Shown: positions 39,888-64,000 of the stretch, in pieces
How positions within the stretch are numbered: position 1 is the first letter of the stretch
Layout of the letters: every line of letters begins with the position of its first letter
Origin: Phototrophicaceae bacterium
GTDB taxonomy: Bacteria; Chloroflexota; Anaerolineae; Aggregatilineales; Phototrophicaceae
Reading direction: 5' to 3'
Length of the DNA: 64,000 bases
NCBI GenBank assembly: GCA_965214075.1
Contig: OZ243936.1
Span: 1,929,797 to 1,993,796 of the forward strand
Position numbers and translations under genes: made by a program
Notes under the pieces: generated by a model
The model's input: the letters and a program-made list of their open reading frames with translations, nothing else
Databases searched by the model: none
Told to the model about the DNA's origin: nothing

Positions 39888-41237
39888 ATGGCAACATTGC
39901 TGCTGAAGAACATCAGTTATCTGGCGACCATGGACGGCGCACGGAGGGAACTGCAAAATGCCGCTGTCTTTATCCGCGACAATATCATCGAAGCGGTCGG
40001 CGGGCTTGATGAAATGCCGGCCGATTGCGCCGACCGCGAGATTGACCTCTCTTGCCATGTCGCGCTGCCAGGCTTGGTGAATACGCATCATCACATGTTC
40101 CAGACATTGACGCGCGCGCTGGCGCAGGAAAATGAACTTTTTGATTGGCTCAAGGTCCTTTATCCCATCTGGCAGAACCTGCGCGGCGAGCACGTCTATA
40201 CCTCGGCTAAGCTGGCAATGGCGGAATTGATGCTGTCCGGTTGTACCACCAGCAGCGACCATTTGTATATCTTTCCCAATGATGTAAGGCTGGAAGACGA
40301 GATTCGCGCCGCCCAAGAATTGGGCTTGCGCTTTCACGCCGCGCGCGGCTCCATGAGCCTGGGCGAGAGCAAAGGCGGTCTGCCACCTGACGCCGTTGTC
40401 GAAGATGAAAAGCATATCATAGCCGATACCAGACGCCTGATTGAAACTTGGCAGGACCCAAATCCACAGTCCATGCTGCAGATTGTGGTCGCGCCCTGTT
40501 CGCCATTCAGCGTTAGCGTCGACCTGATGCGCGAAGCGGCCGACCTGGCGCGCGCCTATCAAGTCAATTTGCATACGCACTTGGCTGAAAATGACAAAGA
40601 TGTCTCGTATAGCCTGGAAACTTTTGGCCAAGCACCCGGCGCTTACGCCGAAAGTGTTGGCTGGGTTGGCGATGATGTTTGGCACGCGCATTGCGTCAAG
40701 CTCAACGCGGCAGAAATCAGCTTGTTCGGGCGCACAGGCACTGGCGTCTGCCATTGCCCGTCATCGAATATGCGCCTGGCGTCGGGTATCGCTCCCCTGC
40801 GCCGCATGCTCGACGAGCGCGTCAAAGTTGGCTTGGGCGTTGATGGCTCGGCTTCCAACGATAGCGGCCACTTGCTAGGCGAAGCCCGCCAAGCCATGCT
40901 GCTGCAGCGGGTGGCGGGGAATCCCGCGGCGCTCACAGCGCGCGAAGCGTTGGAAATGGCAACCATAGGCGGTGCCAAGGTCTTGGGCAGGCAAGACATT
41001 GGTCGCATTGAAGTTGGCATGTCCGCCGATATTGTCGCCTTCCGCCTGGATACACCGAGCATGGCCGGCGCTTTGGCGGATCCCCTGGCGGCGCTGGTCT
41101 TTTGTCAGCCGGCGCAAGTTGACCTGTGCATTATCAATGGCCGCGTTTTAATTGAAGACGGGGCGCTGCATTCGCTTGATTTGCCCGCTTTGATTGAAAG
41201 GCATAATAAGCTGTCGATACAATTGATAAACAATTGA
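39888..41237 (+). CDS. amidohydrolase, 8-oxoguanine deaminase-like (ATZ/TRZ subgroup)
   Basis: LPGLVNTHHHMFQTLTRA metal motif and HLAENDKDV. The N-terminal layout resembles the characterised Pseudomonas 8-oxoguanine deaminase as I recall it. Substrate is not certain. Confidence 0.65.
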   Translation: MATLLLKNISYLATMDGARRELQNAAVFIRDNIIEAVGGLDEMPADCADREIDLSCHVALPGLVNTHHHMFQTLTRALAQENELFDWLKVLYPIWQNLRGEHVYTSAKLAMAELMLSGCTTSSDHLYIFPNDVRLEDEIRAAQELGLRFHAARGSMSLGESKGGLPPDAVVEDEKHIIADTRRLIETWQDPNPQSMLQIVVAPCSPFSVSVDLMREAADLARAYQVNLHTHLAENDKDVSYSLETFGQAPGAYAESVGWVGDDVWHAHCVKLNAAEISLFGRTGTGVCHCPSSNMRLASGIAPLRRMLDERVKVGLGVDGSASNDSGHLLGEARQAMLLQRVAGNPAALTAREALEMATIGGAKVLGRQDIGRIEVGMSADIVAFRLDTPSMAGALADPLAALVFCQPAQVDLCIINGRVLIEDGALHSLDLPALIERHNKLSIQLINN

Positions 41238-41295
41238 TAAACCGCTGATAAACAGCGCGGCTTGATAGCTGAAATGACGGATTGGAGGCCTCAAT

Positions 41296-43008
41296 ATGAG
41301 CATAGTGGATCGTCTGATGGCGGCGCGCGGCGAGGTCCCCGCCGATTTGCTGCTGCGGAATGCGTCTCTGGTCAATGTCATCAGTGGCGAAATCTATGCC
41401 AGCGATGTCGTCGTTCACGACCGTCATGTTGTGGCGCTGGGCTCGGGCTACGCTGGCGCGCAAGAACTTAATTTGCACGGCAAGTACCTCACGCCCGGTT
41501 TAATTGACGCCCACGTTCATATCGAAAGCAGCCTGGTAAGTCCGGCAGAATTTGCGCGCGCGGCGTTGCCTCATGGCCTAACCACCGTCATCACCGACCC
41601 GCACGAAATCGCGAATGTGCTCGGGCTGGAGGGCATGCGCTATATGCTGGAGCGCGCCAAACAGGGTCCGCTCAATATGTTCGTGATGGCTTCAAGCTGT
41701 GTGCCAGCCACGGACATGGAAACCTCGGGCGCGCGCCTAGAGGCGGATGATTTGGCACAGTTGCTCGGTCATCGCTGGGTCTTGGGCTTGGCGGAATTGA
41801 TGAATTATCCTGGCGTCGCGCTGGGCGACGAGGGCATGCTGGACAAGATCGAGATGTTCCGCCATCTGACGCTAGATGGCCACGCGCCCGACATGAGCGG
41901 ACCCATGCTGAATGCCTATGTCGCGGCGGGCGTACAAAGCGAGCACGAATGCACCACAGTGGCGGAAGCGCGGGAAAAGCTGCGCCTCGGCTTGACGATT
42001 TTCATCCGCGAAGGCACAACCACGCGCAATCTGCTGCCGCTGCTGCCGCTGATAAGCAATGAAAATCAGGCTTCCATCTGCTTTTGCACCGACGACCGCA
42101 TCCCCGCCGATTTGCTGGACGACGGCTCGATCGATTATATGATTCGCCTGGCGATAGCCAATGGGCTCGACCCCGTTACCGCAATTCGCATGGGCTCCTA
42201 CAATACTGCTAAACACTTCGGCTTGAAGAAATACGGCGCGGTCGCGCCCGGCAAATATGCGGATATGCTTGTCGTCGCGGACTTAAATGACTTCAGACCA
42301 GAAATGGTCTTCCGCGGCGGCAAGCTGGTCGCCAAAGACGGTCTAATGACACTGCCCCGGCAAGCGCCGCGTAAAATGGACCTGCGCGGAACGGTAAATA
42401 TTTCTAGCGCAGAGCCCGACTTTTCGATCCCAGCCGCAGGCGAAATGATTCATGTTATCGCCACGGTGCGCGACCAAGTTGTAACAGAAAAGCGGCTGGA
42501 ACGAGCAAAAATCGTCGCCGGGCTTGCAGTCAGCGATGTCGAGCGCGACATTTTGAAGTTCGCCATGCTGGAACGGCACCAAGCCAGCGGCAATATCGGC
42601 AAAGCCTTCATACAAGGTTTTGGGCTGAAACGCGGCGCAATCGCTGGCACAGTCGCCCATGACCATCACAATCTGGCTGTGATTGGCGTCGACGACAAGA
42701 GCATGAAAGCCGCGGTGCGCGCTATTGTTGCAATGGGCGGCGGCTTGGTCGCGGTCGACGGCGAGCGGGTTATTGCGCGTCTGCCGCTGCCGGTTGCGGG
42801 TTTGCTAAGCGAGTCGCCCATCGAGGAGGTGCGACAGCAATATGACAGCCTGATTGCCGCGGCGCGCGGCTTAGGCAGTCAACTGCCCGACCCCTTCATG
42901 GTGATGAGCTTCATGGGCTTGGAGGTGATTCCGAAACTGAAACTGACGGATATGGGCTTGGTCGATGTCGAGCAATTCAAAATAATCGAGCTTTTTCATC
43001 AAAATTGA
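41296..43008 (+). CDS. ade: adenine deaminase
   Basis: 570 aa with LTPGLIDAHVHIESS, TTVITDPHEIANV and FCTDD motifs, plus the C-terminal Ade domain. Confidence 0.88.
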   Translation: MSIVDRLMAARGEVPADLLLRNASLVNVISGEIYASDVVVHDRHVVALGSGYAGAQELNLHGKYLTPGLIDAHVHIESSLVSPAEFARAALPHGLTTVITDPHEIANVLGLEGMRYMLERAKQGPLNMFVMASSCVPATDMETSGARLEADDLAQLLGHRWVLGLAELMNYPGVALGDEGMLDKIEMFRHLTLDGHAPDMSGPMLNAYVAAGVQSEHECTTVAEAREKLRLGLTIFIREGTTTRNLLPLLPLISNENQASICFCTDDRIPADLLDDGSIDYMIRLAIANGLDPVTAIRMGSYNTAKHFGLKKYGAVAPGKYADMLVVADLNDFRPEMVFRGGKLVAKDGLMTLPRQAPRKMDLRGTVNISSAEPDFSIPAAGEMIHVIATVRDQVVTEKRLERAKIVAGLAVSDVERDILKFAMLERHQASGNIGKAFIQGFGLKRGAIAGTVAHDHHNLAVIGVDDKSMKAAVRAIVAMGGGLVAVDGERVIARLPLPVAGLLSESPIEEVRQQYDSLIAAARGLGSQLPDPFMVMSFMGLEVIPKLKLTDMGLVDVEQFKIIELFHQN

Positions 43009-43081
43009 CCGTGTTTTTTGGCGAAATATCGCTAAAATACGGGCTATTTATTGAGCAAAGCGCACAAAAACGGGAAAAGAC

Positions 43082-44290
43082 ATGGAAAATCAAGCTCTAC
43101 TGGAGCGCCTGCGGGCGCGTGTCGAAGCGGACCGCGACAACATTATCAGTTTTCTGCGAGAAATCTGCGCCATCCCCAGCATGCAGAATCAAATACGAGC
43201 CTGTGGCGAACGCATCGCCGAAGAAATGACCAAGCTCGGCTATGACGAAATCTTCTGGGACAAAATGGGCAACATCGTCGGCCGCATTGGCTCTGGCGAC
43301 AAGATTCTGCTTTACGACAGCCATATTGATACAGTTGGCGTGGGCGACCCCGATGAATGGCAGTGGGACCCCTTCGAAGGCAAGGTCGAAGACGGTGTGC
43401 TATTCGCTCGTGGCGCTTGCGACGAGAAGGGCAGTACCCCGGGCATGATCTATGGCTTGGCAATCGCCCGCGAGCTGGGTTTGCTGGACGGCTACAGCGC
43501 CTATTACTTCGGCAATATGGAAGAATGGAATGATGGCCAAGCCCCGCATGCTTTTGTGCAGACCGAGGGCATCAAGCCGGACTTTGTTGTGATTGGCGAG
43601 CCGACCAAAATGCAGATTTACCGCGGCCACAAAGGCCGCGTCGAGTTCAAAATCGTCGCCAAGGGGCGCAGCTCGCACGCTGCCAGCAATTATCTGGGCG
43701 ACAACGCGATTTATAAGCTGCTGCCCATCATCGAGCGAATCAGCCATATCGAGCCGCAATTGGGCGACCATGACTTTCTGGGCCAAGGGCGCATAACCGT
43801 TACCGATATGGAAGTCAAAACGCCCAGCATCAACGCTGTGCCGGACGAGGCGGTCATCTACGTCGATCGCCGCATCACATTCGGCGAGGAGCCGCAAGCC
43901 GAGCTGGAGCGCTTGCAAGACATCATTGGCCAGCGCGACGATATTCACGCCGAAATCTTGCTCTATGACGACCCCAGCTATACCGGCTTTGTCTTTCCGC
44001 TGGAAAAAATCTACCCGGCTTGGGCATTTGATGAAGACGAGCCGATCGTGGCGGCAGGCTTGCGCGCAGCCGAGGCGCTTTATGGGCAAACCGATACCGG
44101 CAAATGGGATTTTTCCACCAATGGCATCTATTGGGCGGGCAAAGCGGGCATCCCCAGTATCGGATTCGCGCCCGGCAACGAAATCCATGCCCATACCGTC
44201 TTAGACCAGGTGCCGCTGGAAGATGTCGTGCGCTCGACCGAATGGTACGCGCTTTTCCCGACGATACTCTTGAGCACGATTCAAGGCTAG
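43082..44290 (+). CDS. ygeY: YgeY-type M20 metallohydrolase (selenium-metabolism-linked hydrolase family)
   Basis: Colinear with E. coli YgeY as recalled: FLREICAIPS, MGNIVGRIGSG, DSHIDTVGVGD...W.DPFEG and RGACDEKG. 402 aa. Confidence 0.78.
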   Translation: MENQALLERLRARVEADRDNIISFLREICAIPSMQNQIRACGERIAEEMTKLGYDEIFWDKMGNIVGRIGSGDKILLYDSHIDTVGVGDPDEWQWDPFEGKVEDGVLFARGACDEKGSTPGMIYGLAIARELGLLDGYSAYYFGNMEEWNDGQAPHAFVQTEGIKPDFVVIGEPTKMQIYRGHKGRVEFKIVAKGRSSHAASNYLGDNAIYKLLPIIERISHIEPQLGDHDFLGQGRITVTDMEVKTPSINAVPDEAVIYVDRRITFGEEPQAELERLQDIIGQRDDIHAEILLYDDPSYTGFVFPLEKIYPAWAFDEDEPIVAAGLRAAEALYGQTDTGKWDFSTNGIYWAGKAGIPSIGFAPGNEIHAHTVLDQVPLEDVVRSTEWYALFPTILLSTIQG

Positions 44291-44405: not shown

Positions 44406-45386
44406 ATGCAAACGGACCTCCGAGGCCGTGACCTCATTAGTACGCAAGATTGGTCAAAAGAAGAAATTGAAACCTTGCTAGACGTGGCTTGGGATTTAAA
44501 GCGCAAACGCGCCCTGGGCGAGCCGCACGCGCTGCTGCGCGACAAAGTCTTGGCTATGCTCTTTTTCTTCACCAGTACGCGCACGCGCATCAGCTTCGAA
44601 GCGGGAATGGCGCAATTGGGCGGCCACGCTCAGTTTATTGACAGCACCACCACGCAAATCAGCCACGGTGATACCGCCAAGGAAATCGGCGAGATTGTCG
44701 GGCGCTACACTGACGGCATCGCCATCCGACAGTGCGATTGGGGAATCGGCAACAGCTATATCAATGACGTTGCCCAAGCCAGCCGCGTGCCAGTGCTGAA
44801 CATGCAGTGCGAGGTTTATCATCCTTTTCAGATTCTGGCTGATTTGATGACCATTCAAGAGAAATTCGGGCGCGATTTGCGCGGCAAGACCATCAATGTC
44901 AGTTGGGCTTACGCCTCTAGCTATCAGAAGCCGATTTCCGTGCCCCAGAGTCTGGTGCTGCTTATGACGCGCTTTGGCATGAACCTGCGCCTGACGCGCC
45001 CGCCTGAATATCAGTTAATGCCCGATATCGTCGAGCAAGCGCGCGAGAACACCCGGCGGCATGGCGGCTCCTTCGAGATTCTTGATGACTTCGACGCGGG
45101 CTTCGCCGGCGCTGATATTCTTTACCCGAAGAGTTGGGGCAGTTGGCTGACCACGGAAGATGAAGACGAATCAGCCGAGATTGGCGCAAAATACCGCGAT
45201 TGGATCACCGACGAGCGGCGCATGGCGCTGGCGAATGATCACGCCATTTACATGCACTGCCTGCCGGCCGACCGCAATATCGAAGTGACGGACAGCGTCA
45301 TTGATGGTCCACAAAGCGTTGTTTACGATGAAGCGGAAAATAGATTGCATGTCCAGAAGGCAGCGATGGCGCTCACGATGCGCTGA
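44406..45386 (+). CDS. ygeW: YgeW-type (knotted) carbamoyltransferase
   Basis: Carbamoyl-phosphate motif STRTR, plus HCLPA. The segment KTINVSWAYASSYQKPISVPQSLVLLMTRFGMNLRLTRPPEYQLMPDIVEQARENTRRHGGSFEIL...ADILYPKSW closely parallels E. coli YgeW as recalled. It is shorter than E. coli YgeW at both ends. Confidence 0.75.
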   Translation: MQTDLRGRDLISTQDWSKEEIETLLDVAWDLKRKRALGEPHALLRDKVLAMLFFFTSTRTRISFEAGMAQLGGHAQFIDSTTTQISHGDTAKEIGEIVGRYTDGIAIRQCDWGIGNSYINDVAQASRVPVLNMQCEVYHPFQILADLMTIQEKFGRDLRGKTINVSWAYASSYQKPISVPQSLVLLMTRFGMNLRLTRPPEYQLMPDIVEQARENTRRHGGSFEILDDFDAGFAGADILYPKSWGSWLTTEDEDESAEIGAKYRDWITDERRMALANDHAIYMHCLPADRNIEVTDSVIDGPQSVVYDEAENRLHVQKAAMALTMR

Positions 45387-45528: not shown

Positions 45529-46482
45529 ATGATTGATAAACTGGTGGTGGTGGCGATTGGCGGCAATTCGCTGATTACCGACCCCAACAATCCAGAAATA
45601 GAGCAGCAATGGGAAGCTGTGCGCGAAACCTGCCGTCATATCGCCGACATGATCGCCGACGGCTGGCAGGTCGTCATCACCCACGGCAATGGACCGCAAG
45701 TCGGGTACATTCTCAACCGTTCCGAAATCGCCAAGCGCGAAGCCGGCATCCATGATGTGCCGCTGGACCTGGTGGTGGCGGATACCCAGGGCAGCATCGG
45801 TTATATGCTGCAGCAGGCACTGGACAATTCCCTGCGCCGCGTCGGCATGAATCATACCGTCGCCACCATCATCACGCAGATGCGCGTTGACCCCGATGAT
45901 CCCGCTTTTGACCATCCCGACAAGCCGATTGGCGGATTCCTGTCATACGAAGAAGCCATGGCGGCCCAAGAACATGGCTGGCACATGGTGGAAGACGCCG
46001 GGCGCGGCTGGCGGCGCGTCGTGGCTTCGCCCAAGCCCTTGGTTGTCAACGAAATCAACGCCATCCAAGCCATGGTGCTGGCTGGCTACATCGTGATTGT
46101 CTGCGGCGGCGGCGGCGTACCAGTGGTGCGCAACGAAGTCGGCAGCTTGCGCGGCGTCGACGCCGTCATCGATAAAGACCGCGCCAGCAGCTTGCTGGCG
46201 CAGACATTGCGCGCCGACTTGCTCTTGATTTCGACCGGCGTGGAGAAAGTCTGCCTGCATTTCAACAGTCCCGACGTATACGCGCTGGATGTTATGACCT
46301 TGCAAGAGGCGCGCCGCTATATGGAGCAGGGGCATTTCGCGCGTGGCAGCATGTATCCCAAAATTGAAGCGGCCGTCGATTTTGTGCACAATGGCGGACC
46401 GCGCGCCATCATTACCAATCCGGTAAATTTGACGCGGGCTTTGCATCACGAGACCGGCACCTGGATTGTGCCGGGCGGCTGA
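45529..46482 (+). CDS. arcC: carbamate kinase
   Basis: VVAIGGNSL, THGNGPQVG and the C-terminal GGGGVPV motif; 317 aa. Confidence 0.88.
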   Translation: MIDKLVVVAIGGNSLITDPNNPEIEQQWEAVRETCRHIADMIADGWQVVITHGNGPQVGYILNRSEIAKREAGIHDVPLDLVVADTQGSIGYMLQQALDNSLRRVGMNHTVATIITQMRVDPDDPAFDHPDKPIGGFLSYEEAMAAQEHGWHMVEDAGRGWRRVVASPKPLVVNEINAIQAMVLAGYIVIVCGGGGVPVVRNEVGSLRGVDAVIDKDRASSLLAQTLRADLLLISTGVEKVCLHFNSPDVYALDVMTLQEARRYMEQGHFARGSMYPKIEAAVDFVHNGGPRAIITNPVNLTRALHHETGTWIVPGG

Positions 46483-46777: not shown

Positions 46778-48037
46778 ATGGCGGAAATAAAGCGACTGCG
46801 CTGTGTTGTCGGCGGCTGTTCTTATGCCCCAGAGGAGCTGACTTATACCTGCCCTCGGCATGGCGAATTAGGCACGCTGGATATTCTGTACGACTATGCG
46901 GCGCTGGGCGCGTCCCTGGACCGCGATGCGCTCTTGACGAACCGTCAAGCCAATGCTTGGCGCTATAAAGCGCTCTTGCCCATCGCGCTGGGAAGCCCGG
47001 TCCCGCCTATAGATGTCGGTTGGACGCCCTTGTACGATGCGCCGCGTGTGGCGGCGGCGCTAGGGCTTGAGCGCGCTTGCATCAAAGACGATGGTGCCAA
47101 CCCGACCGGCTCGCTCAAGGATCGCGCTAGCGCGCTGGTGCTGGCGCGGGCGCTGGAACTTGGCATCCCGACGGTTGCCGCCGCCAGCACCGGCAACGCG
47201 GCCGCGGCGCTGGCGGGTTTGGGCGCGGCTGTGCCAGAAATCGAGATTGTCATTTTTGTGCCGCATAGCGCGCCGCCGGCGAAGGTGGCGCAACTGCTGG
47301 TATATGGCGCGACTGTGCTGCTGGTTGAGGGCAGTTATGACGATGCTTTCGACCTCTGCATGGCTTATTGCGCCGAGGCCGGCTGGTATTCGCGAAATAC
47401 CGGTGTCAATCCCTTCACCACCGAAGGCAAGAAGACGGTCGCGCTGGAAATCGCCGAACAGTTGCGTTGGCAGGTCCCGGACGTCCTGGCTGTGAGCGTC
47501 GGCGACGGCAGCATCATCAGCGGCGTGCATAAAGGTTTTTTGGATTTGTACCGTCTCGGCTGGATAAATAAGATTCCGCGTTTGATTGGCGTGCAAGCGG
47601 CTGGCAGCGCTGTCCTGGCGCGCGCCTGGCAAGACGGGTTGGAGGCGGGCTCGATTCGCCGCGCCGCGGCCGAGACTATCGCCGACAGCATCGCTTCGGA
47701 ATTGCCGCGCGATCGCGCCAAAGCGCTGCGGGCAGCGCGCGCGAGCAATGGCGCATTTGTTACTGTCGCCGATGCCGACATCCTGGCGGCTATCCCGCAG
47801 CTGGCGCAATTGAGCGGCGTCTTTGCCGAGCCGGCCGCCGCCGCGACATTCGCCGGCGCGCGCCAAGCGGTCGCCAGCGGTCTAATAAACAAAGAAGAGC
47901 GCCTGTGCTTGCTCATCACCGGCAATGGATTAAAAGATGTCGCGCGGGCGCGGCAGGCGGTATCACAGGGCATTCGCATCGCGCCGACTGTCGCGGCGGC
48001 GCGCGCGGCGCTGCAGCGAGCGAGCGCCCATGCCTGA
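46778..48037 (+). CDS. threonine-synthase-like PLP enzyme (second ThrC-family paralog)
   Basis: N-terminal Cys-rich ribbon CVVGGCSY...CPRHG, PLP-lysine motif NPTGSLKDRASA and ASTGNAAAA. It is distinct from the housekeeping thrC at 10908. Confidence 0.7.
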   Translation: MAEIKRLRCVVGGCSYAPEELTYTCPRHGELGTLDILYDYAALGASLDRDALLTNRQANAWRYKALLPIALGSPVPPIDVGWTPLYDAPRVAAALGLERACIKDDGANPTGSLKDRASALVLARALELGIPTVAAASTGNAAAALAGLGAAVPEIEIVIFVPHSAPPAKVAQLLVYGATVLLVEGSYDDAFDLCMAYCAEAGWYSRNTGVNPFTTEGKKTVALEIAEQLRWQVPDVLAVSVGDGSIISGVHKGFLDLYRLGWINKIPRLIGVQAAGSAVLARAWQDGLEAGSIRRAAAETIADSIASELPRDRAKALRAARASNGAFVTVADADILAAIPQLAQLSGVFAEPAAAATFAGARQAVASGLINKEERLCLLITGNGLKDVARARQAVSQGIRIAPTVAAARAALQRASAHA

Positions 48038-49064: not shown

Positions 49065-49309
49065 GCCTGTCGCACGAATCGCAGCAGATGCGGCTGGTAC
49101 AACGATACCGGCAACTGGTCTTGGACTATGAAGCCTTGGACAAGCGCATTGACGAGCTGATTACGCGGCATGAGGGCGGCCGGGAGTTGATGTTGCCGGC
49201 TGATATTGCGTCTTACCGAGAATTGGCGCGTCAACGTACTGCGCTGCAAAACGACATGCGCATCTGCGAGCGGCAATTGAAGATTGAGGATTTCCGCGAC
49301 AATAATTAA
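49061..49309 (+). CDS. small hypothetical coiled-coil protein (82 aa)
   Basis: Its start overlaps the GT2 stop (ATGA). It has heptad-like charged sequence and no recognisable family. Confidence 0.45.
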   Translation: MSLSHESQQMRLVQRYRQLVLDYEALDKRIDELITRHEGGRELMLPADIASYRELARQRTALQNDMRICERQLKIEDFRDNN

Positions 49310-55957: not shown

Positions 55958-56616
55958 GCCTCTGGGCGATTGTACCCGTCAAACCATTGAAGTACGCCAA
56001 GAGCCGGCTCTCCGCCGTCTTATCCCCCGAACAGCGCTATGAACTGGCGGGGGCGATGTTTAGTCATGTGCTTTCGGTTGTAACAAGCGTCCACAGCGTA
56101 ACTGGGGTTTTGGTCATCTCGCGCGATACCAAGGCTTTGGCGATGGCGCGCGAAATGGGCGCAAAGACGATACAAGAAAGCGCAATTTCGGACCTGAATC
56201 CGGCGCTGATGCGCGCCACGATGATCGTCAAAAGCTGGCGGTCGGACGCTGTTTTGGTCTTGCCAGCCGATTTGCCTTTTATACAAGCTGAAGATATTCA
56301 AGCGCTGATTGGCTTGGGCAAGAACCCTTCAATCGTCATCGCGACCGACCATAACAGCGATGGCACAAACGCTTTGCTGGCGAGCCCGCCAGGCTTGATT
56401 GATTATGATTATGGGCCGGGCAGTTATCAGCGGCATATCCGCAGCGCCGAACGCGCCGGTATCGAAGTCTTCACTTATCACTCCAACAATTTGGCATCGG
56501 ATATCGATGTGCCGGCCGATCTAGCGCTATACCAGCGCATGCGCGTGGCTGGCAATTACGAGCATCTGCCAGAATTGTCCTTGAATTCTAGTGGCGAAAT
56601 CGAATCGCTAGAGTGA
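55954..56616 (+). CDS. cofC: phospholactate/phosphoenolpyruvate guanylyltransferase
   Basis: WAIVPVKPLKYAKSRLS, LPADLPF and DGTNAL. ATG 55954 overlaps the cofD stop (ATGA). Confidence 0.8.
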   Translation: MSLWAIVPVKPLKYAKSRLSAVLSPEQRYELAGAMFSHVLSVVTSVHSVTGVLVISRDTKALAMAREMGAKTIQESAISDLNPALMRATMIVKSWRSDAVLVLPADLPFIQAEDIQALIGLGKNPSIVIATDHNSDGTNALLASPPGLIDYDYGPGSYQRHIRSAERAGIEVFTYHSNNLASDIDVPADLALYQRMRVAGNYEHLPELSLNSSGEIESLE

Positions 56617-56937: not shown

Positions 56938-57948
56938 ATGATGGCTGATCGAGTAGCGCTCTATTTACAAGACGCGCATGGCTTGCGCGACGCGATGGAA
57001 TATGTCAAATATGCCGAAGCAGCCGGCTTCGATGCGGTATGGCAGGCGGAAAGCCGACTGGTGCGAGACGCGATTGTGCCGATGGCGGCTTTTGCGGCTG
57101 TTACCTCGCGCATTAAAATTGGCTCTGGCGTCATCAATAACTGGACGCGCAACGCGGCGGTGATTGCCGCTACCTTCTTGACCCTGGATGATTTGGCGCA
57201 GGACCGCATTTATTGCGGCATTGGTGCCTGGTGGGACCCGCTGGCTGCCAAAGTGGGCATCAAGCGCTACAAGAACCTGCTGGCAATGCGCGAAGTCGTG
57301 ACGGTTGTTCGGCGCTTGCTGAACCGCGAGCGCGTCAGCTTCCAGGGCGAGTTTGTGCAGTTGACGGATGTCGAGCTGGATGTTGTGCATGGGCGCAAGG
57401 AGCCGCGCAATGTGCCCATCTATGTTGGTGCGACCGGACCAAAAATGATGGCGCTCACTGGCGAAATCGCCGATGGCGTGGTTCTAAATTATCTCGTTTC
57501 GCCCAAGTACAACGACTCGGCGATGGCGCAGTTGGAGATCGGCGCGCGCAAAGCGGGCAAAAGCGTTTACGATGTCGATCGCCCGCAGCTGGTCGTCTGC
57601 TCGGTGGATAATGATCGCCAGAAAGCGCTGGACGCGGCGCGCAAATTGGTAACGCAATACCTGGGTCAGCAGCCGCATATCATGAAAGCCAGCGGCGTCA
57701 GCCAAGATTTGCTGGATGAAATCGGTCAGGTCTTGACCTGGCCCGCCACCGAAGAACAGATTCTGGAAGCCATGAAATTGGTGCCGGATGATGTCGTGCA
57801 AATGATTACGGCATCGGGTACGCCGGCGGAAGTCAAAGCCAAAGTGCGCGAGTACATTTCCGCCGGCGCGACCTGTCCCATTCTTTACCCCTTGGGCGAG
57901 GACGTGCGCCTGATGATTGATACCTTCGCCAGCGGCTATTCCGACTAG
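56938..57948 (+). CDS. F420-dependent LLM-class (luciferase-like) oxidoreductase
   Basis: TIM-barrel LLM layout: [20 protein letters not shown]..., [35 protein letters not shown]. It is adjacent to the F420 genes. Confidence 0.75.
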
Positions 57949-57985: not shown

Positions 57986-58621
57986 TTGCGGGATCGAACC
58001 GTGAAGATTCTCTGCGTCAGCGATATCGAAGCGCCGCAGTTGCACAGCGCGGTCAACCTCCGTCGTCAATATAGCGATATTGATTTAATCATTAGCTGCG
58101 GGGATATGCCGCCTGGTTATCTTGATTTTATCAGCACCATCATCAGCGTACCGATGTTCTACGTGCGCGGCAATCATGACGAGATATACCGCGACGACCC
58201 GCCCGGCGGCATTAATTTGCATGAAAAAGTCGTTGCATACAAAGGCTTGACGCTGGCTGGGCTGGAAGGGTCCATCCGCTATAACGCGGGGGAAATCCAG
58301 TATACGCAGATGCAGATGCACTGGAAGGTCGTGAAGCTGGGCGCGAAGGTGCTTTGGAACCGCGTGATGGGCAGCCGCGGCATTGATCTTTTTGTGACGC
58401 ATTCGCCGGCGCGCAATATCCACGATGGCCGCGATGTCGCGCATCGTGGCTTCGACAGTTTTGTCAATTTCTTGAAGTGGTACCGCCCCCGCTATATGCT
58501 GCACGGTCATGTGCATACCTGGGATAGAAGAAAAGTTGTGCGCACGCAGTTCGCGTCCACCTGCGTTTTGAATATCAATCCATTTACGGTTTTGGAGTTG
58601 GAGCCGCAATCAGCCTCATAA
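57986..58621 (+). CDS. metallophosphoesterase
   Basis: ILCVSDIE, CGDM, RGNHDE, VTHSP and GHVH motifs. Confidence 0.7.
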   Translation: MRDRTVKILCVSDIEAPQLHSAVNLRRQYSDIDLIISCGDMPPGYLDFISTIISVPMFYVRGNHDEIYRDDPPGGINLHEKVVAYKGLTLAGLEGSIRYNAGEIQYTQMQMHWKVVKLGAKVLWNRVMGSRGIDLFVTHSPARNIHDGRDVAHRGFDSFVNFLKWYRPRYMLHGHVHTWDRRKVVRTQFASTCVLNINPFTVLELEPQSAS

Positions 58622-58649
58622 ACCAATGCCGCGGGGAGGTGGCAGCCTT

Positions 58650-60083
58650 ATGTGGCAAGCATATCATTCCGTCAGCAAGGTCGAAGAAGCCCTGGCATTG
58701 CTCCAGCAGCACGGTCGCGCCGCGCGCATAGTCGCCGGCGGCACCGACCTAATCATTGAAATGGAGCGCGGCCAGCGCCCGCAGCTCAAGGTTCTGATTG
58801 ACATCACAAGGGTCAAGGGACTGGATGAGATTTGCGCCCGCGACGGCATGGTGCATTTGGGACCCTTGGTCACGCATAATCATGTGCTTGGCAGCGCGCT
58901 GATACGGCAGCGCGGGCTGCCGCTGGCGCAAGCCTCCTGGGAAGTTGGCGCGCCCCAGATACGCAACCGCGCAACTATCGCCGGCAATCTCATCACCGCT
59001 TCGCCCGCCAATGACACCATCACGCCTTTGATTGCAATGGACGCCCAGGTGACCTTATCATCGCAGGCTGGCCAACGCGCAGTTGCCTTGCAAGACTTTT
59101 ACAGCGGCTACCGTCAGACGGTTATGCTGCCCAATGAAATGCTAAGCGCCATATCATTCCCGGCGCTACGAGACAATCAGCGCGGCTTATTCTTGAAGCT
59201 GGGTTTGCGCCGCGCCCAGGCGATATCCGTGGTTGACGCGGCGATTGTGCTTTCCTTCGCCGCCGATGAGACCGTCAGCGCCGCGCGCATCGCGCTGGGC
59301 AGCGTGGCCGCGACCATCATTCGCGCGCCAGCGGCGGAGGCATACCTGCTGGGCAAGCGCTTGAACCCAGAAAATATCGCGGCGGCGGCGCGCTTGGCTG
59401 GGCAAGCCGCCAGTCCCATCGCCGATGTCCGCGGCAGCGCCGAATATCGCAGCGAGATGGTGAAAGTCTTGGTAGCGCGGGCATTGCGGCGCTTGGCGCA
59501 TGAATCCGTTGACAGTGGCTTGCCCAGCGCCCCGCCCATGCTTTGGGGCAAAGACGAAGCCCGGGTGAAAAAAGTATTGCCGGCGCAAATTATACATCGG
59601 CCGGATACGCCGATAGCTTGCGCTATCAACGGCGAAAAGGCGCTGGTCGCCAGTGGACAGCAAAAATCGCTGCTGCACTGGTTGCGCGAAGATGTCAAAC
59701 TGCCGGGCACGAAGGAAGGCTGCGCTGAAGGCGAATGTGGCGCTTGTACCGTCTTCCTGGATGATGTCGCCGTCATGGCTTGCATGGTGCACGCGCCCAG
59801 GGCACATGATGCCGAGATTGCGACGGTTGAGGGACTCGCGAATGCCGATGCGCTGCACCCGATTCAGAGCGCCTTCATTGATGAAGCGGCGGTGCAATGC
59901 GGTTACTGCACGCCGGGCTTTTTGATGGCGGGCGCGAAACTGCTTGAGGAGATAGCGGAACCCAGCCGAGAACAAATCAATTACAGCATTAGCGGCAATC
60001 TCTGCCGCTGCACTGGCTATTACAAGATCGTCAAAGCCTTTGAAGCAGCGAGCAAAGCGAATCTAAAACAAAGCGAAAGCTAG
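58650..60083 (+). CDS. xanthine-dehydrogenase-family FAD-binding subunit fused to the [2Fe-2S] subunit
   Basis: N-terminal FAD part (IVAGGTDLIIEM, CO-dehydrogenase-flavoprotein-like). C-terminal Fe-S part CAEGECGACTV, CGYCTPGFLM and NLCRCTGYYKI. The ORF opens at 58626; ATG 58650 (MWQAYHS) is preferred. Confidence 0.85.
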   Translation: MWQAYHSVSKVEEALALLQQHGRAARIVAGGTDLIIEMERGQRPQLKVLIDITRVKGLDEICARDGMVHLGPLVTHNHVLGSALIRQRGLPLAQASWEVGAPQIRNRATIAGNLITASPANDTITPLIAMDAQVTLSSQAGQRAVALQDFYSGYRQTVMLPNEMLSAISFPALRDNQRGLFLKLGLRRAQAISVVDAAIVLSFAADETVSAARIALGSVAATIIRAPAAEAYLLGKRLNPENIAAAARLAGQAASPIADVRGSAEYRSEMVKVLVARALRRLAHESVDSGLPSAPPMLWGKDEARVKKVLPAQIIHRPDTPIACAINGEKALVASGQQKSLLHWLREDVKLPGTKEGCAEGECGACTVFLDDVAVMACMVHAPRAHDAEIATVEGLANADALHPIQSAFIDEAAVQCGYCTPGFLMAGAKLLEEIAEPSREQINYSISGNLCRCTGYYKIVKAFEAASKANLKQSES

Positions 60084-60087
60084 GCTC

Positions 60088-61839
60088 ATGGACAGGCAGG
60101 TGCCGACGACCGGCAGCGAAGAAATTGAACTATATATGCGCACATATTACTCGCTGCTGCGCTCTAGCGACGCCATCAAAATTGAGACATTGGTCGAGAG
60201 CCATATCGCCATGCGCTCTTCTTTGCACGAGTACGCCAGCGAGCTGCAGCCCGATGTTTCGGCATTGATGTACAGCGCATTGCGGCTGCCAGCCTGCATC
60301 ATCCAAGTTGAAGAAGTGCTGATTGGGCAGATGGACCGCGCCTTTGTGGCGGCCGGTTACAAAAACATCGCGCAATGGCGGCAAGTCTATGCGCCCGGGC
60401 GCAGGCGGCGAACGCATTTCAATGGCGGTCATACGATGGCGGTATACATCATCAGCCGCTCTGATATTGATGACCTCGTGCCGATTTTGACCGCCTTTCA
60501 AATCGAATGGAACAAACTGCATATTTTGTTGCAAAAGCAAGACTTGCAAGATTTGCTGCTGGCGCATGAAGACTGCGCATTGTCGGACCCCGATTTCGCG
60601 CATTTGGCGGCCGGCTTGTACATGGCGGTCAGCGACTTGCGTCGGCTGCGTTTGCTATGGAAGGACGATTTTGTCACGAATTTGTTGTCTATGAGCCGGC
60701 AGCGCAAAAGCATGAATTTGCGGCTGATATCCGGTTCCTTGGCCGATTACCGCCGCGCGACCGCGTCCTGGTGGGATTATTTGTGCGCCGAGCTGTCTGA
60801 TGTTGGCATCGAGCTCAATGAAAGACCCGTCTATTTCGTCTCCAGCAATACACATTCCCTAATCAACCTCTTGGCTGGCTTCGCCCGGCGCTACGAAGAA
60901 AGCCTGATTAGTTATATCGAGACATTTCAAGAAAAATCCCTGCTGACCGAATACGAGGACATCAAGCAGAGCTACCACAAAAGTATGGACAATTTTTTAT
61001 ACTTTGTGCTACGCCAGTATCTCTCCGAGCGCGGCAGCGAAGCCAAGCGCATCTTTCATGAAGAAGAGAATCGCTTAGGCATCCACCGCGTTCCCAGCCG
61101 CCAAGGTTTCGAAATCGAGACCCAGGTTATCGAATTGGGCAAGCTGGAAGCGCGCTGGTTCGACCGGCGTTTGGGGCGCGCCGATGACCTCGAGCCGCTG
61201 CGCCACAGCCAAGCCATCATCATCAATATCGACTATCCTTTGGGCATGGCTTCTTATGAATTGCTGAGCCGCATATCCGAGGGCGTCGGGCGTTTGGATG
61301 GTGTCTATGTCATGGGCAAGTCGGCCACGCTCAATGGGCGCATTGGCGATATGATGATTCCCAATGTCATCCACGACGAACATTCGCGGAATACCTATCT
61401 CTTCCGCAATTGCTTTACCGCGCGCCATGTCCGCTCTTATATGCGCCATGGCAATATCTTGGACAATCAAAAAGCGGTAACGGTTTTGGGTACCTTTTTA
61501 CAAAATCCCCATTATATGAGCGTCTTTTATAAAGAAGGTTATACCGATATCGAAATGGAAGGCGGTCCTTACCTATCCGCGGTCTATGAAGCCTTCCGCC
61601 CGCAGCGGCATCCCATGAACGAAATTGTTAATTTGCATTCGGTCAAATTTGATATTGGATTTTTGCATTACGCCTCGGACAGGCCAACCAAAGCGGGCCA
61701 GAATCTGGGCGCGGGCAGCCTCAGCTTCGGCGGCGTTGAACCGACTTATGCCGCCGCAATCGCCATCATCAGACGCATATTTTATAATGAGACCGAGAAA
61801 TTGATCGAAACAACATTTGAGGCAATGCCAGCCTTTTAG
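60088..61839 (+). CDS. uncharacterised 583-aa protein; C-terminal ~230 aa resembles a PNP/UDP-fold nucleosidase (AMP-nucleosidase-like)
   Basis: IINIDYPLGMASYELL..., GVYVMGKSATLNGRIGDMMIPNVIHDEH, TDIEMEGGPYL and HYASDRP follow the order of PNP_UDP-type catalytic motifs. I recognise no family for the N-terminal ~350 aa. It starts 4 nt after the upstream stop. Confidence 0.5.
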   Translation: MDRQVPTTGSEEIELYMRTYYSLLRSSDAIKIETLVESHIAMRSSLHEYASELQPDVSALMYSALRLPACIIQVEEVLIGQMDRAFVAAGYKNIAQWRQVYAPGRRRRTHFNGGHTMAVYIISRSDIDDLVPILTAFQIEWNKLHILLQKQDLQDLLLAHEDCALSDPDFAHLAAGLYMAVSDLRRLRLLWKDDFVTNLLSMSRQRKSMNLRLISGSLADYRRATASWWDYLCAELSDVGIELNERPVYFVSSNTHSLINLLAGFARRYEESLISYIETFQEKSLLTEYEDIKQSYHKSMDNFLYFVLRQYLSERGSEAKRIFHEEENRLGIHRVPSRQGFEIETQVIELGKLEARWFDRRLGRADDLEPLRHSQAIIINIDYPLGMASYELLSRISEGVGRLDGVYVMGKSATLNGRIGDMMIPNVIHDEHSRNTYLFRNCFTARHVRSYMRHGNILDNQKAVTVLGTFLQNPHYMSVFYKEGYTDIEMEGGPYLSAVYEAFRPQRHPMNEIVNLHSVKFDIGFLHYASDRPTKAGQNLGAGSLSFGGVEPTYAAAIAIIRRIFYNETEKLIETTFEAMPAF

Positions 61840-61893
61840 GCTTGGCAACGATTGCCAGTTATTTTCATCAGACATTAGATAGGGCTTAGACAA

Positions 61894-64000
61894 TTGACCG
61901 CAGAAGCAACTAGCGTAATCAGCCAGTCAGTCAAACGCATTGACGCCCGCGGCAAGGTCACCGGCGAAACCCGCTATCCCGGCGATATTGATATCGAAGG
62001 GCAGTTATGGATGCGCATCAAATTTAGCGAGCGCGCCCATGCCCGCGTCTTGCATGTGGATGCCAGCCGCGCGGAAGCGCTGCCGGGCGTCTTGCGCGTC
62101 TTCACCAGCCACGATGTGCCCGTCAACGAATACGGCTTGGTCATCAAAGACCAGCCGGTGCTTTGTGGACCGGGCGGCAAAAAACCGGGGAGCGATGTCG
62201 CGCGCTGCTACATGGACATGATAGCGACGGTGGTGGCCGAAACTGACGCTATCGCCCGCCAAGCGCTCGAGCTCATCGAAGTGGCATACGAAGACTTGCC
62301 GGCGGTGTTTGATGCGGATGCGGCTATGCAGCCGGGCGCGCCGCAGCTGCATCCCGACAGCCCCGGCAATTTAGTTACGCAGTACCGCATCCGCCGCGGC
62401 GATATGGCAGCCGGCTGGGCGCAGGCGGATGTCGTGGTCGAAGCGGAATACGAGACCACTTGGCAAGAACACGCCTACCTGCAACCAGAAGCGGGACTGG
62501 CCTACATCGACGACGAGAATCGGGTGACTGTGCTGGTGGCTGGGCAATGGACGCATGAAGACCAAGAGCAAATTGCTCATGCGCTGGACTTGCCGCCAGA
62601 GCAAGTGCGCGTGATATACCCGGCCATTGGCGGCGCATTTGGCGGCAGAGAAGATATGACCGTCCAGATTATTTTGGCGCTGGCAGCCTGGCAACTGCGA
62701 CAGCCCGTCAAAATCCAGTGGAATCGCGAAGAGTCGATCCTCTATCATCACAAAAGGCACCCGATAAAGGTCAAGGCGAAATGGGGCGCGACCAGCGCAG
62801 GCAAATTGACCGCTGCCGCCGCGACCATCATTGGCGATGCCGGCGCATACAACTATACGTCTAACAAGGTGCTCGGCAATGCGCAGCTCACGGTAACCGG
62901 ACCATACGAGATAGCCAACGCGCATGTCGATACCTACACGGTCTACACCAATAATATCCCCTCAGGCGCTTTTCGCGGCTTTGGCGCGCCCCAGGCTTTG
63001 CTGGCTGCGGAGGGTCAAATGAATCGGCTGGCAGCCGCCTTGAACATGGACCCGCTCGAGCTGCGCATGAAAAACACCATCAAAGAAGGCAGTATCGGCT
63101 CGGTAGGCAGTCCTTTCCCGCCCGGCGTGACGATGCCACAAGTCTTCGCGGCTTGCGGGCAGGAATCCTGGTGGCGGCAGCGCGACCAGGGCTGGCGGAT
63201 GCGCAAGGCGAGTCAGCCCGCCGACAGCAGCATGCGGCGCGGGCGCGGCATCGCCGGCGGGTTCAAAAATGTCGGCTTCAGCTTTGGTTTCCCCGAGCAC
63301 TGTTGGGCTGGTATCGAGATCCATGGCGAGGGCGAGATTGAGTCGGTAAGGCTTTATCAGGCTGGCGCTGAAGTCGGGCAGGGCGCGCATACCGCCCTCA
63401 GCCAGATGGCGGCGGACGCGGTCGGAGTGCCTTTCGACAAGGTGCGGATTGTCGCTTCGGACACGGCGACCTCGGGTTCATCCGGCAGCGCGTCGGCATC
63501 GCGGCTGTCATTTATGTCCGGCAATGCCATACGCGGCGCGGCCGAAATCGCCCTAAGAAAATGGCAGGACGAAGAACGTCCAGCCAAGGCAGAGTATATG
63601 TACCATCCGCCGCCGACCACCGCCTTTGACCCCGATACGGGAGAATGCGATCCCAATTTCGCTTATGGCTATGTCGCCGAAGCGGTCGAGGTCGAGGTTG
63701 ATATCGAAACGGGCCAGGTGCGGCTGCTGGAGGTGGTCTGTGCCAACGATGTCGGCAAGGTCATCAATCCACAGCAATTAGAGGGTCAGATAGAAGGCGC
63801 AATCGTGCAAGCCCAGGGCTACGCTTTGATGGAGTACCTCGTCTCGCGCGAAGGCAAGGTCTTGAACCCATTTTTGTCTACTTACCTCATTCCGACTTCT
63901 TTGGATGTGCCGCCGATCGTAAAGTCAGTTGTGCTAGAAAATCCCGATCCCATTGGTCCTTGGGGCGCGCGCGGCATGGCGGAGATGCCTTTCCTGCCGC
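61894..64000 (+). CDS. xanthine-dehydrogenase/aldehyde-oxidase-family molybdopterin-binding subunit (3' end beyond window)
   Basis: Not in the ORF track because no stop is reached. My own translation from TTG 61894 gives LTAEATSVISQSVKRIDARGKVTGETRYPGD...HAYLQPEAGLAY...IGGAFGGREDM...SGAFRGFGAPQALLAAE...GSSGSASASR. An in-frame TAG lies at 61876. Confidence 0.85.
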   Translation, partial: MTAEATSVISQSVKRIDARGKVTGETRYPGDIDIEGQLWMRIKFSERAHARVLHVDASRAEALPGVLRVFTSHDVPVNEYGLVIKDQPVLCGPGGKKPGSDVARCYMDMIATVVAETDAIARQALELIEVAYEDLPAVFDADAAMQPGAPQLHPDSPGNLVTQYRIRRGDMAAGWAQADVVVEAEYETTWQEHAYLQPEAGLAYIDDENRVTVLVAGQWTHEDQEQIAHALDLPPEQVRVIYPAIGGAFGGREDMTVQIILALAAWQLRQPVKIQWNREESILYHHKRHPIKVKAKWGATSAGKLTAAAATIIGDAGAYNYTSNKVLGNAQLTVTGPYEIANAHVDTYTVYTNNIPSGAFRGFGAPQALLAAEGQMNRLAAALNMDPLELRMKNTIKEGSIGSVGSPFPPGVTMPQVFAACGQESWWRQRDQGWRMRKASQPADSSMRRGRGIAGGFKNVGFSFGFPEHCWAGIEIHGEGEIESVRLYQAGAEVGQGAHTALSQMAADAVGVPFDKVRIVASDTATSGSSGSASASRLSFMSGNAIRGAAEIALRKWQDEERPAKAEYMYHPPPTTAFDPDTGECDPNFAYGYVAEAVEVEVDIETGQVRLLEVVCANDVGKVINPQQLEGQIEGAIVQAQGYALMEYLVSREGKVLNPFLSTYLIPTSLDVPPIVKSVVLENPDPIGPWGARGMAEMPFLP

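Follow-up and report, generated by a model that had tools for sequence, protein, structure and literature searches.

The last part of a 64,000-nucleotide stretch from the genome of a Phototrophicaceae bacterium (contig OZ243936.1, positions 1,929,797 to 1,993,796; this whole stretch is referred to below as the window) carries 21 genes that run from position 39888 to the window end at 64000 and all lie on the + strand of the ORF list. We conclude that this locus is likely to be a Chloroflexota version of the reductive urate (2,8-dioxopurine) pathway, in which an F420-dependent reductase would take the place of the E. coli enzyme YgfK. Spacing between the genes ranges from −10 to +321 nt with four start/stop overlaps, bearing out an earlier sequence-only annotation (the original prediction) of a single-strand string with short gaps, and each − strand ORF in the region falls inside a + strand gene with a strong family match. 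The same prediction had proposed a variant of the ygeW–ygeY–ssnA–carbamate kinase–xanthine dehydrogenase (XDH) pathway in a distant lineage, which agrees with our results, the lineage being Chloroflexota.

The pathway in question, also named after its 2,8-dioxopurine intermediate ('yanthine'), was reconstituted in 2025 from E. coli and Clostridia, and its description as poorly resolved in the original prediction is thus outdated (PMC12507026; bioRxiv 10.1101/2025.04.24.650524). According to that work, XdhD–YgfM or XdhAC converts urate to 2,8-dioxopurine, which is then reduced by YgfK or UacX; SsnA opens the first ring of the reduced compound and HyuA the second, giving 2,3-diureidopropionate; YgeW phosphorolyses one ureido group, from which the carbamate kinase YqeA yields ATP; and YgeY hydrolyses the other to leave 2,3-diaminopropionate, which YgeX turns into pyruvate and ammonia (PMC12507026; bioRxiv 10.1101/2025.04.24.650524). 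A commentary restricts the pathway to anaerobes, obligate or facultative, that live chiefly in animal guts (PMC12990295). Li et al. 2025 (PMC12507026) further reported that SsnA neighbourhoods of Chloroflexota contain a PF00296 protein instead of YgfK or UacX and named it a putative F420-dependent yanthine reductase, on the basis of sequence-similarity and genome-neighbourhood networks and in one sentence each of results and discussion. Within the literature that we searched, 'F420' and 'ssnA' co-occur only in that paper, and the words 'purine' and 'uric' are absent from a 2021 review of F420 (PMC8498797).

We favour this assignment because SsnA, YgeY and the carbamate kinase of the cluster pass curated cut-offs while being 37–50% identical to the characterised E. 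coli enzymes, and because Li et al. 2025 independently predicted such a variant from neighbourhood networks. The ssnA gene (51460..52812) encodes an amidohydrolase, predicted to open a ring of reduced 2,8-dioxopurine, that scores 507.5 bits on NF005540 (cut-off 444) and 486.2 on TIGR03314 (455.5); the M20 hydrolase YgeY (43082..44290) scores 456 on TIGR03526 (321.5) and 410 on NF009555 (321); and the carbamate kinase (45529..46482), expected to convert carbamoyl phosphate and ADP to ATP, scores 402 on NF009007 (266) and 368.8 on TIGR00746 (358.25). When the E. coli pathway proteins were searched against the window by tblastn, these three products were found to be 37%, 38% and 50% identical to SsnA, YgeY and YqeA, respectively.

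Two predicted feeder enzymes head the cluster: an 8-oxoguanine deaminase (39888..41237; 8-oxoguanine to urate; NF006055, 678.8 bits against a cut-off of 532), whose MAG (metagenome-assembled genome) orthologs carry that name and whose position is retained in relatives, and an adenine deaminase (41296..43008; adenine to hypoxanthine; TIGR01178, 610.5 against 472.5), whose orthologs contain the Adenine_deam_C domain. Altogether nine cluster genes lie above curated NCBIfam cut-offs (39888, 41296, 43082, 45529, 51460, 52948, 53628, 55013 and 55954). Among the eight identities named in the original prediction, those at 39888, 41296, 43082, 45529 and 51460 are secured by such cut-offs and the YgeW assignment at 44406 fails them, while the XDH subunits at 58650 and 61894 have fitting Pfam domains but reach no equivalog cut-off.

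The E. coli queries also define what the cluster lacks. HyuA, YgfK, YqeB, YqeC and MocA had no tblastn match in the window, and YgfK had none in any of the relatives' loci searched either; the UacX family, PF01180, had no match among the cluster genes scanned. The YgeX query gave only a 27% match over 80 residues, to a threonine synthase (ThrC)-like gene, and the diaminopropionate ammonia-lyase model NF006058 reached only 22.9 bits, on a CysK-like protein. The absence of hyuA, ygfK and ygeX noted in the original prediction is thereby upheld, the short ygeX match being the only trace of the three.

The step of YgfK is most likely filled by a block of F420 genes directly after ssnA together with the luciferase-like monooxygenase-fold (LLM) oxidoreductase that follows them, as judged from family assignments and context. 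The block consists of Fno/NpdG, an NADPH-dependent F420 reductase (52948..53625; TIGR01915, 210.5 against 149.8); CofE, the F420-0:γ-glutamyl ligase (53628..54395; TIGR01916, 274.9 against 180.65); a stand-alone nitroreductase-fold protein resembling the C-terminal domain of FbiB (54411..55022; TIGR03553, 142.9, below the cut-off of 249.55; PF00881 in its orthologs); CofD/FbiA, the 2-phospho-L-lactate transferase (55013..55957; TIGR01819, 306.8 against 257.45), for which a GTG start at 55013 gives 314 aa, matching the orthologs; and the guanylyltransferase CofC/FbiD (55954..56616; TIGR03552, 164.1 against 105). With CofC, CofD and CofE all above curated cut-offs the F420 tail-synthesis set is present, the nitroreductase-fold protein may by analogy be the dehydro-F420-0 reductase, and the genes between ssnA and the LLM gene are separated by gaps of 2–135 nt or overlap at their stops. 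Such a string would be able to add the side chain with its glutamate tail, to regenerate the reduced cofactor with NADPH and to put it to use. Described in the original prediction as a non-canonical insert, the F420 block together with the LLM protein is instead the leading candidate for the step of YgfK, in agreement with the prediction of Li et al.

The Mer-like LLM protein itself (56938..57948; PF00296, 228.9 bits) is the only substrate-level reductase candidate in the loci. Its top 17 NCBIfam matches are all F420-class LLM families, at 46–187 bits, against 43.5 bits for the best FMN-class family. It scores 186.7 and 182.9 on the two Mer models (cut-offs 276 and 348.7) and 72 on Fgd (420), and its best PDB matches are Mer structures (140 bits for 8qq8). 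Since F420-dependent LLM enzymes catalyse imine-type reductions, we propose that F420H2 would donate a hydride to C6 of 2,8-dioxopurine, followed by protonation at C5, with SsnA removing the product.

A one-genome-per-species scan with SsnA as the anchor recovered 80 loci at SsnA identities of 64–88%, all of them in MAGs of Chloroflexota that bear the labels Anaerolineae, Aggregatilineales, Phototrophicaceae, Anaerolinea or Thermoflexus. The presence of each gene was scored by tblastn with all window proteins, and missing entries mostly reflect short contigs or the 10-kb flank limit. The order carbamoyltransferase–carbamate kinase–ThrC-like–GT2–CysK-like–orf147–SsnA–Fno–CofE–nitroreductase–CofD–CofC–LLM recurs in roughly 70–80 of these 80 loci, with ThrC-like found in 74, the glycosyltransferase GT2 in 77, CysK-like in 78, orf147 in all 80, Fno in 78 and LLM in 77. 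The same order in 80 independent species-level genomes argues that the cluster is not a product of chance, and it confirms the conserved gene order that the original prediction would lead one to expect. The most conserved proteins are LLM (76–97% identity) and the carbamoyltransferase (76–98%), compared with 45–77% for CofD. Adenine deaminase was detected in 53 of the 80 loci, the 10-kb flanks being sometimes too short to include it, and in none of the loci of the distant relatives L073, L076 and L078–L080. The sole clear exception to the arrangement is L057 (15077-21371), where the string ends after cofC and is followed by about 6.3 kb of unrelated genes in which neither LLM nor XDH was seen.

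The loci fall into three sub-types. Type A has the arrangement of the window, and in type B the LLM and XDH genes are separated by genes for an 823–869-aa GT-C-like membrane protein and an XdhC-family protein. Type C (L073, L075, L078 and L080) shares the LLM enzyme, at 76–79% identity, and the F420 genes with the other loci, and retains more of the E. coli parts. A HyuA-like D-hydantoinase is encoded upstream of ygeY in L073, L078 and L080 (TIGR02033, 389.9 against 393), the L075 locus being too short to tell, and an XdhD-type molybdenum (Mo) enzyme in L073, L075 and L078 (TIGR03313, 500 bits on a partial sequence), the L080 locus being too short in turn. The canonical steps without an ortholog in type C are those of YgfK and YgeX only. 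That these relatives keep E. coli parts and yet have no YgfK points to LLM as its replacement, and we regard them as the strongest argument for LLM as the missing reductase.

Taken together, these assignments suggest the following scheme. Adenine deaminase, 8-oxoguanine deaminase and the PucD-type XDH would deliver purines as urate, judging by their family membership, and urate might be converted to 2,8-dioxopurine by reverse action of this XDH via its FAD subunit, or by an enzyme encoded elsewhere. CofC, CofD, CofE and the FbiB-C-like nitroreductase would, by family, build the F420 tail, and electrons would pass from NADPH via Fno to F420H2, with which the Mer-like LLM enzyme, to go by its context, would reduce 2,8-dioxopurine, the dearomatising step for which E. 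coli uses YgfK and Clostridioides UacX. The SsnA family member would then open the first ring of the reduced compound, and opening of the second ring would correspond to the canonical HyuA step. One ureido group would be phosphorolysed by the carbamoyltransferase, for which this is the presumed substrate, to carbamoyl phosphate, from which the carbamate kinase, by family, would form ATP; the family function of YgeY would be to hydrolyse the second ureido group to 2,3-diaminopropionate, and the ThrC-like or the CysK-like enzyme, in the place of YgeX, may convert this to pyruvate and ammonia.

The carbamoyltransferase (44406..45386; 326 aa) is a compact relative of YgeW, as its motifs and trees indicate, and lies below every carbamoyltransferase equivalog cut-off: ornithine carbamoyltransferase (OTC) 266.8 against 306, acetylornithine transcarbamylase (AOTC) 265.8 against 288, and the YgeW models NF005538 and TIGR03316 217.3 against 453 and 203 against 500. 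Its identity to E. coli YgeW is 35%. In an alignment it shares with YgeW, and not with ArgI or PyrB, the motifs SYxKPxSVPQ, GNxY, QCxxHPxQ, YPKSW and HCLPAD, which it carries in the forms SYQKPISVPQ, GNSY, QCEVYHPFQ, YPKSW and HCLPAD; YPKSW stands at the site of the OTC motif DxWxSMG, and the OTC DxxxSMG is absent. It lacks three insertions and the C-terminal tail of YgeW and is 70 residues shorter. A neighbour-joining (NJ) tree of nine sequences joins it to YgeW with 77% bootstrap support and then to acetylornithine transcarbamylase with 62%. When 90 full-length representatives from a search of 1.84 billion proteins were added, the resulting 99-sequence NJ tree gave 80% support to a clade of 44406, YgeW and AOTC, about half of whose members have the KSW motif, and all 12 sequences with KPxSxPQ fell into a 15-sequence clade with YgeW and 44406; inner nodes of this tree are weak, including the exact sister relation of 44406 and YgeW. 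The YgeW-type assignment of the original prediction is borne out in part: the protein is YgeW-like by motifs and tree position but no YgeW equivalog. We consider it probably YgeW-like in activity yet outside the curated YgeW family. Public MAG records call it 'ornithine carbamoyltransferase' (a 323-member cluster at 90% identity), a name that motifs and context suggest is misleading.

Two fold-type-II PLP enzymes in the cluster are natural candidates for the role of YgeX, the diaminopropionate ammonia-lyase. The ThrC-like enzyme (46778..48037; PF00291, 236 bits; TIGR00260, 190) is 33% identical to the product of a second thrC in the window (10908-12338, − strand; TIGR00260, 257 bits), which adjoins a GHMP kinase gene (12409-13350), probably encoding homoserine kinase, and a cystathionine-γ-synthase family gene (9656-10906). 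The second copy is probably the housekeeping thrC, and its place beside the GHMP kinase argues that the ThrC-like enzyme of the cluster is a specialised paralog; that the latter is itself the housekeeping threonine synthase is unlikely given this second gene. The CysK/CBS-like enzyme (49334..50719; PF00291, 88 bits) has a C-terminal extension of about 155 aa and lies far below the cysteine-synthase cut-offs (125 against 344), although its best PDB matches, at ≤99 bits, are cysteine synthases.

The electron-transfer subunit of the XDH (58626..60083) has an FAD domain fused to two 2Fe-2S domains (PF00941, PF03450 and PF01799, that is FAD_binding_5, CO_deh_flav_C and Fer2_2), with matches to XdhB and XdhC/PucE below cut-offs; the alternative start at 58650 gives 477 aa, matching the orthologs. 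The Mo subunit (61894..64000; Ald_Xan_dh_C, MoCoBD_1 and MoCoBD_2) is cut by the window end after about 702 of about 741 residues. With the E. coli queries its matches are weak and similar (XdhA 258 bits, XdhD 217 bits). A full-length ortholog (83% identical) scores 566 bits on PucD, 458 on XdhA (NF043082), 436 on the selenium-dependent XDH model, 282 on the XdhD family TIGR03313, at most 254 on CO dehydrogenase and 246 on PaoC, all below equivalog cut-offs, and by these scores the Mo enzyme groups with xanthine dehydrogenases and not with CO dehydrogenases or aldehyde oxidoreductases, in line with the original prediction. At the positions of bovine Glu802, Arg880, Phe914 and Glu1261 the window subunit has Glu, Arg, Phe and Glu, whereas the first and third of these are Gln and Tyr in E. 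coli XdhA, E. coli XdhD and the type C enzyme. XdhD Glu606, which may help to orient the substrate (Li et al. 2025, PMC12507026), is aligned with Pro. On these residues and scores the Mo enzyme of the cluster looks like a classical xanthine dehydrogenase feeding urate.

Directly after the Mo gene, relatives encode a YqeC–MocA fusion (TIGR03172, 125–127 bits against 73; L082 14194-15633, L076 19929-21278, L086 14192-15538 and L087 14039-15427), and the window ends about 40 codons ahead of this point. YqeC is a marker of the selenium-dependent hydroxylase trait, and the XdhC-family protein encoded in type B loci weakly resembles E. coli YqeB. The PucD-type XDH of the cluster is thus probably selenium-dependent, judging by this neighbourhood, and the fusion lends substance to the selenium link drawn in the original prediction.

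Between the two XDH subunit genes lies a DUF6909 gene (60088..61839; PF21850, 701.5 bits), which had been described as AMP-nucleosidase-like. It occupies this position in types A and B (10001-11755 in L082, L083, L086 and L087) and is absent from the L076 and L079 loci. More than 7800 homologs were scored, of which few are named, and then only as 'hypothetical' or 'DUF6909 family'; the protein has no sequence match in the PDB, and the family goes unmentioned in the literature searched. Its AF2 model has a pLDDT of 66.5, with mostly 65–97 over the first ~400 residues and a poor C-terminal 140 residues, and Foldseek against the PDB yielded nothing below E = 0.88; nucleoside phosphorylases for uridine and purines appeared at a probability of ≤0.15, through a C-terminal part whose pLDDT is <50. 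We rejected the AMP nucleosidase or purine nucleoside phosphorylase (PNP) assignment, as hhalign comparison with E. coli Amn and a PNP gave a probability of 0.2, in an alignment whose shallowness (Neff 1.9) limits the strength of that rejection. Membership of PNP_UDP_1 was rejected as well, as Pfam returned DUF6909 alone even at E = 10 and with each half scanned. As no homology of DUF6909 to AMP nucleosidase or PNP was detected, the funnel from AMP suggested in the original prediction is without support. In a separate observation, a purine nucleoside phosphorylase (NF006054, 366 bits) and a protein of about 265 aa are encoded about 4 kb past the cluster in relatives, after an opposite-strand K+ channel gene (PNP at 17880-18719 in L082, 18111-18953 in L086 and 17893-18849 in L087), and this PNP may be a nucleoside feeder outside the window.

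Several observations weigh against the reductive urate assignment. The window holds no candidate for either the HyuA step or the conversion of urate to 2,8-dioxopurine, the Mo enzyme being PucD/XdhA-like and lacking the XdhD signature. HyuA was found neither in the window nor beside the cluster in close relatives, a search that covered about 45 kb around the cluster in this clade. Adenine deaminase was considered as a stand-in for HyuA and rejected, both because it passes the adenine deaminase cut-off and because L076 and L079, whose loci cover folD to past the Mo gene, have neither ade nor hyuA. The LLM enzyme reaches no curated equivalog cut-off, and its closest characterised relative is Mer, a methylene-H4MPT reductase; an FO synthase (CofG/CofH or FbiC) had no match among the window ORFs scanned and may be encoded in another part of the genome. 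Queries with E. coli UacT and XanQ found no urate or xanthine transporter in the loci, no regulator is recognisable among the 21 cluster genes, and an Rfam search (E ≤ 1) over 36–64 kb gave no purine, xanthine or guanidine riboswitch and two chance-level hits only. GT2, the 82-aa protein, the metallophosphoesterase and the GT-C-like protein of relatives have no place in the proposed scheme. Finally, synteny in close relatives extends to unrelated flanking genes, so that part of the conservation reflects shared ancestry.

The locus could instead be a mosaic, in which the purine genes form the pathway while the F420 genes, LLM, the PLP paralogs and GT2 are unrelated neighbours retained through shared ancestry, the yanthine reductase being encoded elsewhere and LLM acting on, for example, a methylene-pterin or methylene-folate, as Mer-like enzymes do, or on an unrelated imine. 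The best characterised relatives of LLM are indeed Mer, close relatives also keep flanking genes that are clearly unrelated, GT2, the 82-aa ORF and the metallophosphoesterase stand outside the pathway, and the L057 string stops after cofC with no LLM or XDH in the remaining ~6.3 kb. We nevertheless consider a mosaic unlikely: the arrangement persists across several orders (Aggregatilineales, Anaerolinea, Thermoflexus, Phototrophicaceae) and to SsnA identities as low as 64%, a range within which feeder genes and the type of XDH have been swapped; the F420 genes sit tightly between SsnA and LLM, with short gaps and overlapping stops; neither YgfK nor UacX was found in any locus; and the pathway supplies no one-carbon folate unit for a Mer-like enzyme. 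Less probable still is that the cluster handles a different substrate without passing through 2,8-dioxopurine, for example by reducing xanthine directly or by acting on a pterin or on 8-oxopurines that arise from damaged nucleotides. Such a route would account for both the classical type of the XDH, with its xanthine-oxidase residues and no XdhD signature, and why HyuA is missing and dispensable, and it could draw on the 8-oxoguanine deaminase that heads the cluster and on the carbamoyltransferase and the two PLP enzymes, which are not orthologous to YgeW and YgeX. However, SsnA and YgeY pass equivalog cut-offs built on E. coli-type proteins, 8-oxoguanine deaminase yields urate, the canonical entry compound, and relatives whose LLM, SsnA and carbamoyltransferase are nearly identical to these possess genes of the XdhD type and for HyuA, an indication that the intermediates are the same.

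CysK-like enzymes and carbamoyltransferases also occur together in viomycin-type pathways, where they make diaminopropionate and β-ureidoalanine. This likeness, together with the embedded GT2 and the GT-C-like membrane protein of relatives, would fit a biosynthetic cluster for a glycosylated metabolite containing ureido or diaminopropionate groups, with no purine breakdown at all. We hold this to be very improbable, as there are no NRPS, PKS, ATP-grasp or export genes, a carbamate kinase beside the transferase is a catabolic, ATP-yielding arrangement, two purine deaminases and an XDH would have no role, and a spread over 80 species from many habitats would be unusual for a specialised metabolite. 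Within the reductive urate assignment, a bolder version holds that the pathway has been rebuilt around F420, with at least four steps performed by enzymes unrelated to those of E. coli: LLM for YgfK, a selenium-linked PucD-type XDH with DUF6909 for XdhD, the ThrC-like or CysK-like enzyme for YgeX, and another hydrolase for HyuA. Taken jointly, we regard these replacements as a tentative proposal that is more apt to fail than to hold in full.

The remaining cluster genes are of less evident function. GT2 (48030..49064; PF00535, 121.7 bits; PgfS 239 and ArnC 173, both below cut-off) is a glycosyltransferase of the GtrB/ArnC/PgfS type whose start overlaps the ThrC-like stop. It is followed by a conserved 82-aa predicted coiled-coil protein (49061..49309) without a Pfam match, for which tblastn gave matches of 34–65% identity in over 60 loci, located between GT2 and CysK-like. 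Sub-types B and C encode a large GT-C-like membrane protein after LLM (L045 16186-18657, L086 3593-6064 and L087 4116-6641), which together with GT2 resembles a pair for polyprenol-phosphate sugar glycosylation and has no obvious connection to purines or F420. Orf147 (50838..51281; 147 aa) lies directly upstream of ssnA in every locus (80/80); its 1120 homologs are all unnamed and have no Pfam domain, and some relatives are 223–226 aa long with a C-terminal extension of about 75 aa. Its AF2 model (pLDDT 72) finds ASCH, EVE and YTH domains as the best Foldseek matches (E = 2e-3, probability 1.0, TM 0.45–0.54), and the predicted fold is PUA-like, resembling these base-binding domains. A calcineurin-like metallophosphoesterase (57986..58621; PF00149, 48.5 bits) is found in 66 of the 80 loci, each time immediately ahead of the XDH genes. 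GT2, both small ORFs and the metallophosphoesterase were absent from the gene list of the original prediction, and the conservation of the 82-aa and 147-aa ORFs indicates that these are real genes.

The region is no 'island' as first described: gene GC is 52–64% around a window mean of 56.5%, with GC3 of 58–73%, the flanks are syntenic in relatives, and none of the 21 cluster genes encodes an integrase or transposase, tRNA genes being outside this search. Terminator-like sites are no commoner than in shuffled sequence (22 against 23.4 ± 4.8), and promoter-like sites are modestly commoner (19 against 12.0 ± 3.8). The upstream gene folD (38887), suggested as a further member, adjoins the cluster in close relatives and in two distant ones; we reject a role for it since the pathway yields no folate-bound one-carbon unit and since the synteny spans equally the unrelated gmk, a ygfZ-like gene, divIC and galT. 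The rest of the window, which includes leucine biosynthesis genes, murA, nuo subunits, argS, a maltose ABC transporter, galT and gmk, is unrelated to the cluster. The same holds for a 918-aa MGH1-like/GH63 protein (23247-26003, − strand), which lies beside an ABC exporter and near the maltose-type ABC importer and is retained upstream in L089 and L090.

With the F420 variant already in print as a one-line prediction, the novelty of the locus is moderate. Undescribed before are the embedded F420 tail-synthesis genes, the PucD-type XDH with DUF6909, the YqeC–MocA fusion downstream in relatives, and the two PLP paralogs, the PUA-like small protein and the glycosyltransferase within the cluster. 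The cluster would place the pathway in environmental, possibly host-associated Chloroflexota with a different hydride carrier, and it gives a biochemical context to DUF6909, orf147 and the compact YgeW-like transferase. Should LLM be an F420H2:2,8-dioxopurine reductase, F420 would gain a role in central nitrogen and purine recycling, its physiological use in Chloroflexota would become testable, and engineered urate-degrading strains would gain a reductase that needs no Fe-S clusters. If the rebuilt pathway were true in full, F420 synthesis in this lineage would largely serve purine catabolism, giving F420 its first defined physiological role in Chloroflexota, and an 'anaerobic' pathway would be at hand that bypasses the Fe-S flavoprotein YgfK and hence might run in aerobes.

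Compared with the E. coli pathway, the cluster shares orthologs of SsnA, YgeY and carbamate kinase, a YgeW-like transferase beside the kinase, an XDH-family Mo enzyme with an FAD partner and, in Chloroflexota relatives, a YqeC/MocA maturation marker nearby; the expected products are likewise the same, the ureido carbons ending as carbamate and carbamoyl phosphate and the C3 core as pyruvate. It differs from E. coli in having no homolog of YgfK, HyuA, YgeX, YqeB, the YgeV regulator or the purine transporters, in its PucD-type Mo enzyme with a separate FAD and FeS subunit where XdhD is a fused FeS–Mo protein, in the F420 synthesis and recycling genes and LLM after ssnA, and in the extra conserved genes for GT2, orf82, orf147, the metallophosphoesterase and DUF6909. 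The window belongs to exactly the Chloroflexota SsnA group that Li et al. 2025 singled out; absent from their account are the CofC, CofD, CofE, nitroreductase and Fno genes, the sub-types, DUF6909, the glycosyltransferase and the non-orthologous PLP enzymes; a neighbourhood filter on PF00291 would take the latter for YgeX.

In the Clostridioides difficile and Clostridium sporogenes variant (UacX or YgfK, UacY, XdhAC) the reductase and the ureido-cleaving steps appear as exchangeable modules, and reductant use is likewise adapted to the redox carriers of the host. For C. difficile Li et al. proposed ferredoxin as the reductant, whereas NADPH via F420 is proposed for the window, and where C. difficile has the hydrolytic UacY the window keeps the ATP-yielding pair of transferase and kinase. 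Mer belongs to the same fold family as LLM, and hydride transfer from F420H2 to an imine-like carbon would fit reduction at C6; unlike Mer, LLM stands in a context of purine catabolism with no methanopterin genes in view. Bacillus subtilis PucABCDE, finally, provides in PucD the best family match of the Mo subunit and is paralleled by the PucC-like FAD and PucE-like 2Fe-2S domains of the window and by a MocA/PucB-like cytidylyltransferase downstream in Chloroflexota relatives, while unlike PucABCDE the window has the FAD and FeS parts fused and DUF6909 between the subunit genes, and the MocA-like protein of the relatives is fused to YqeC.

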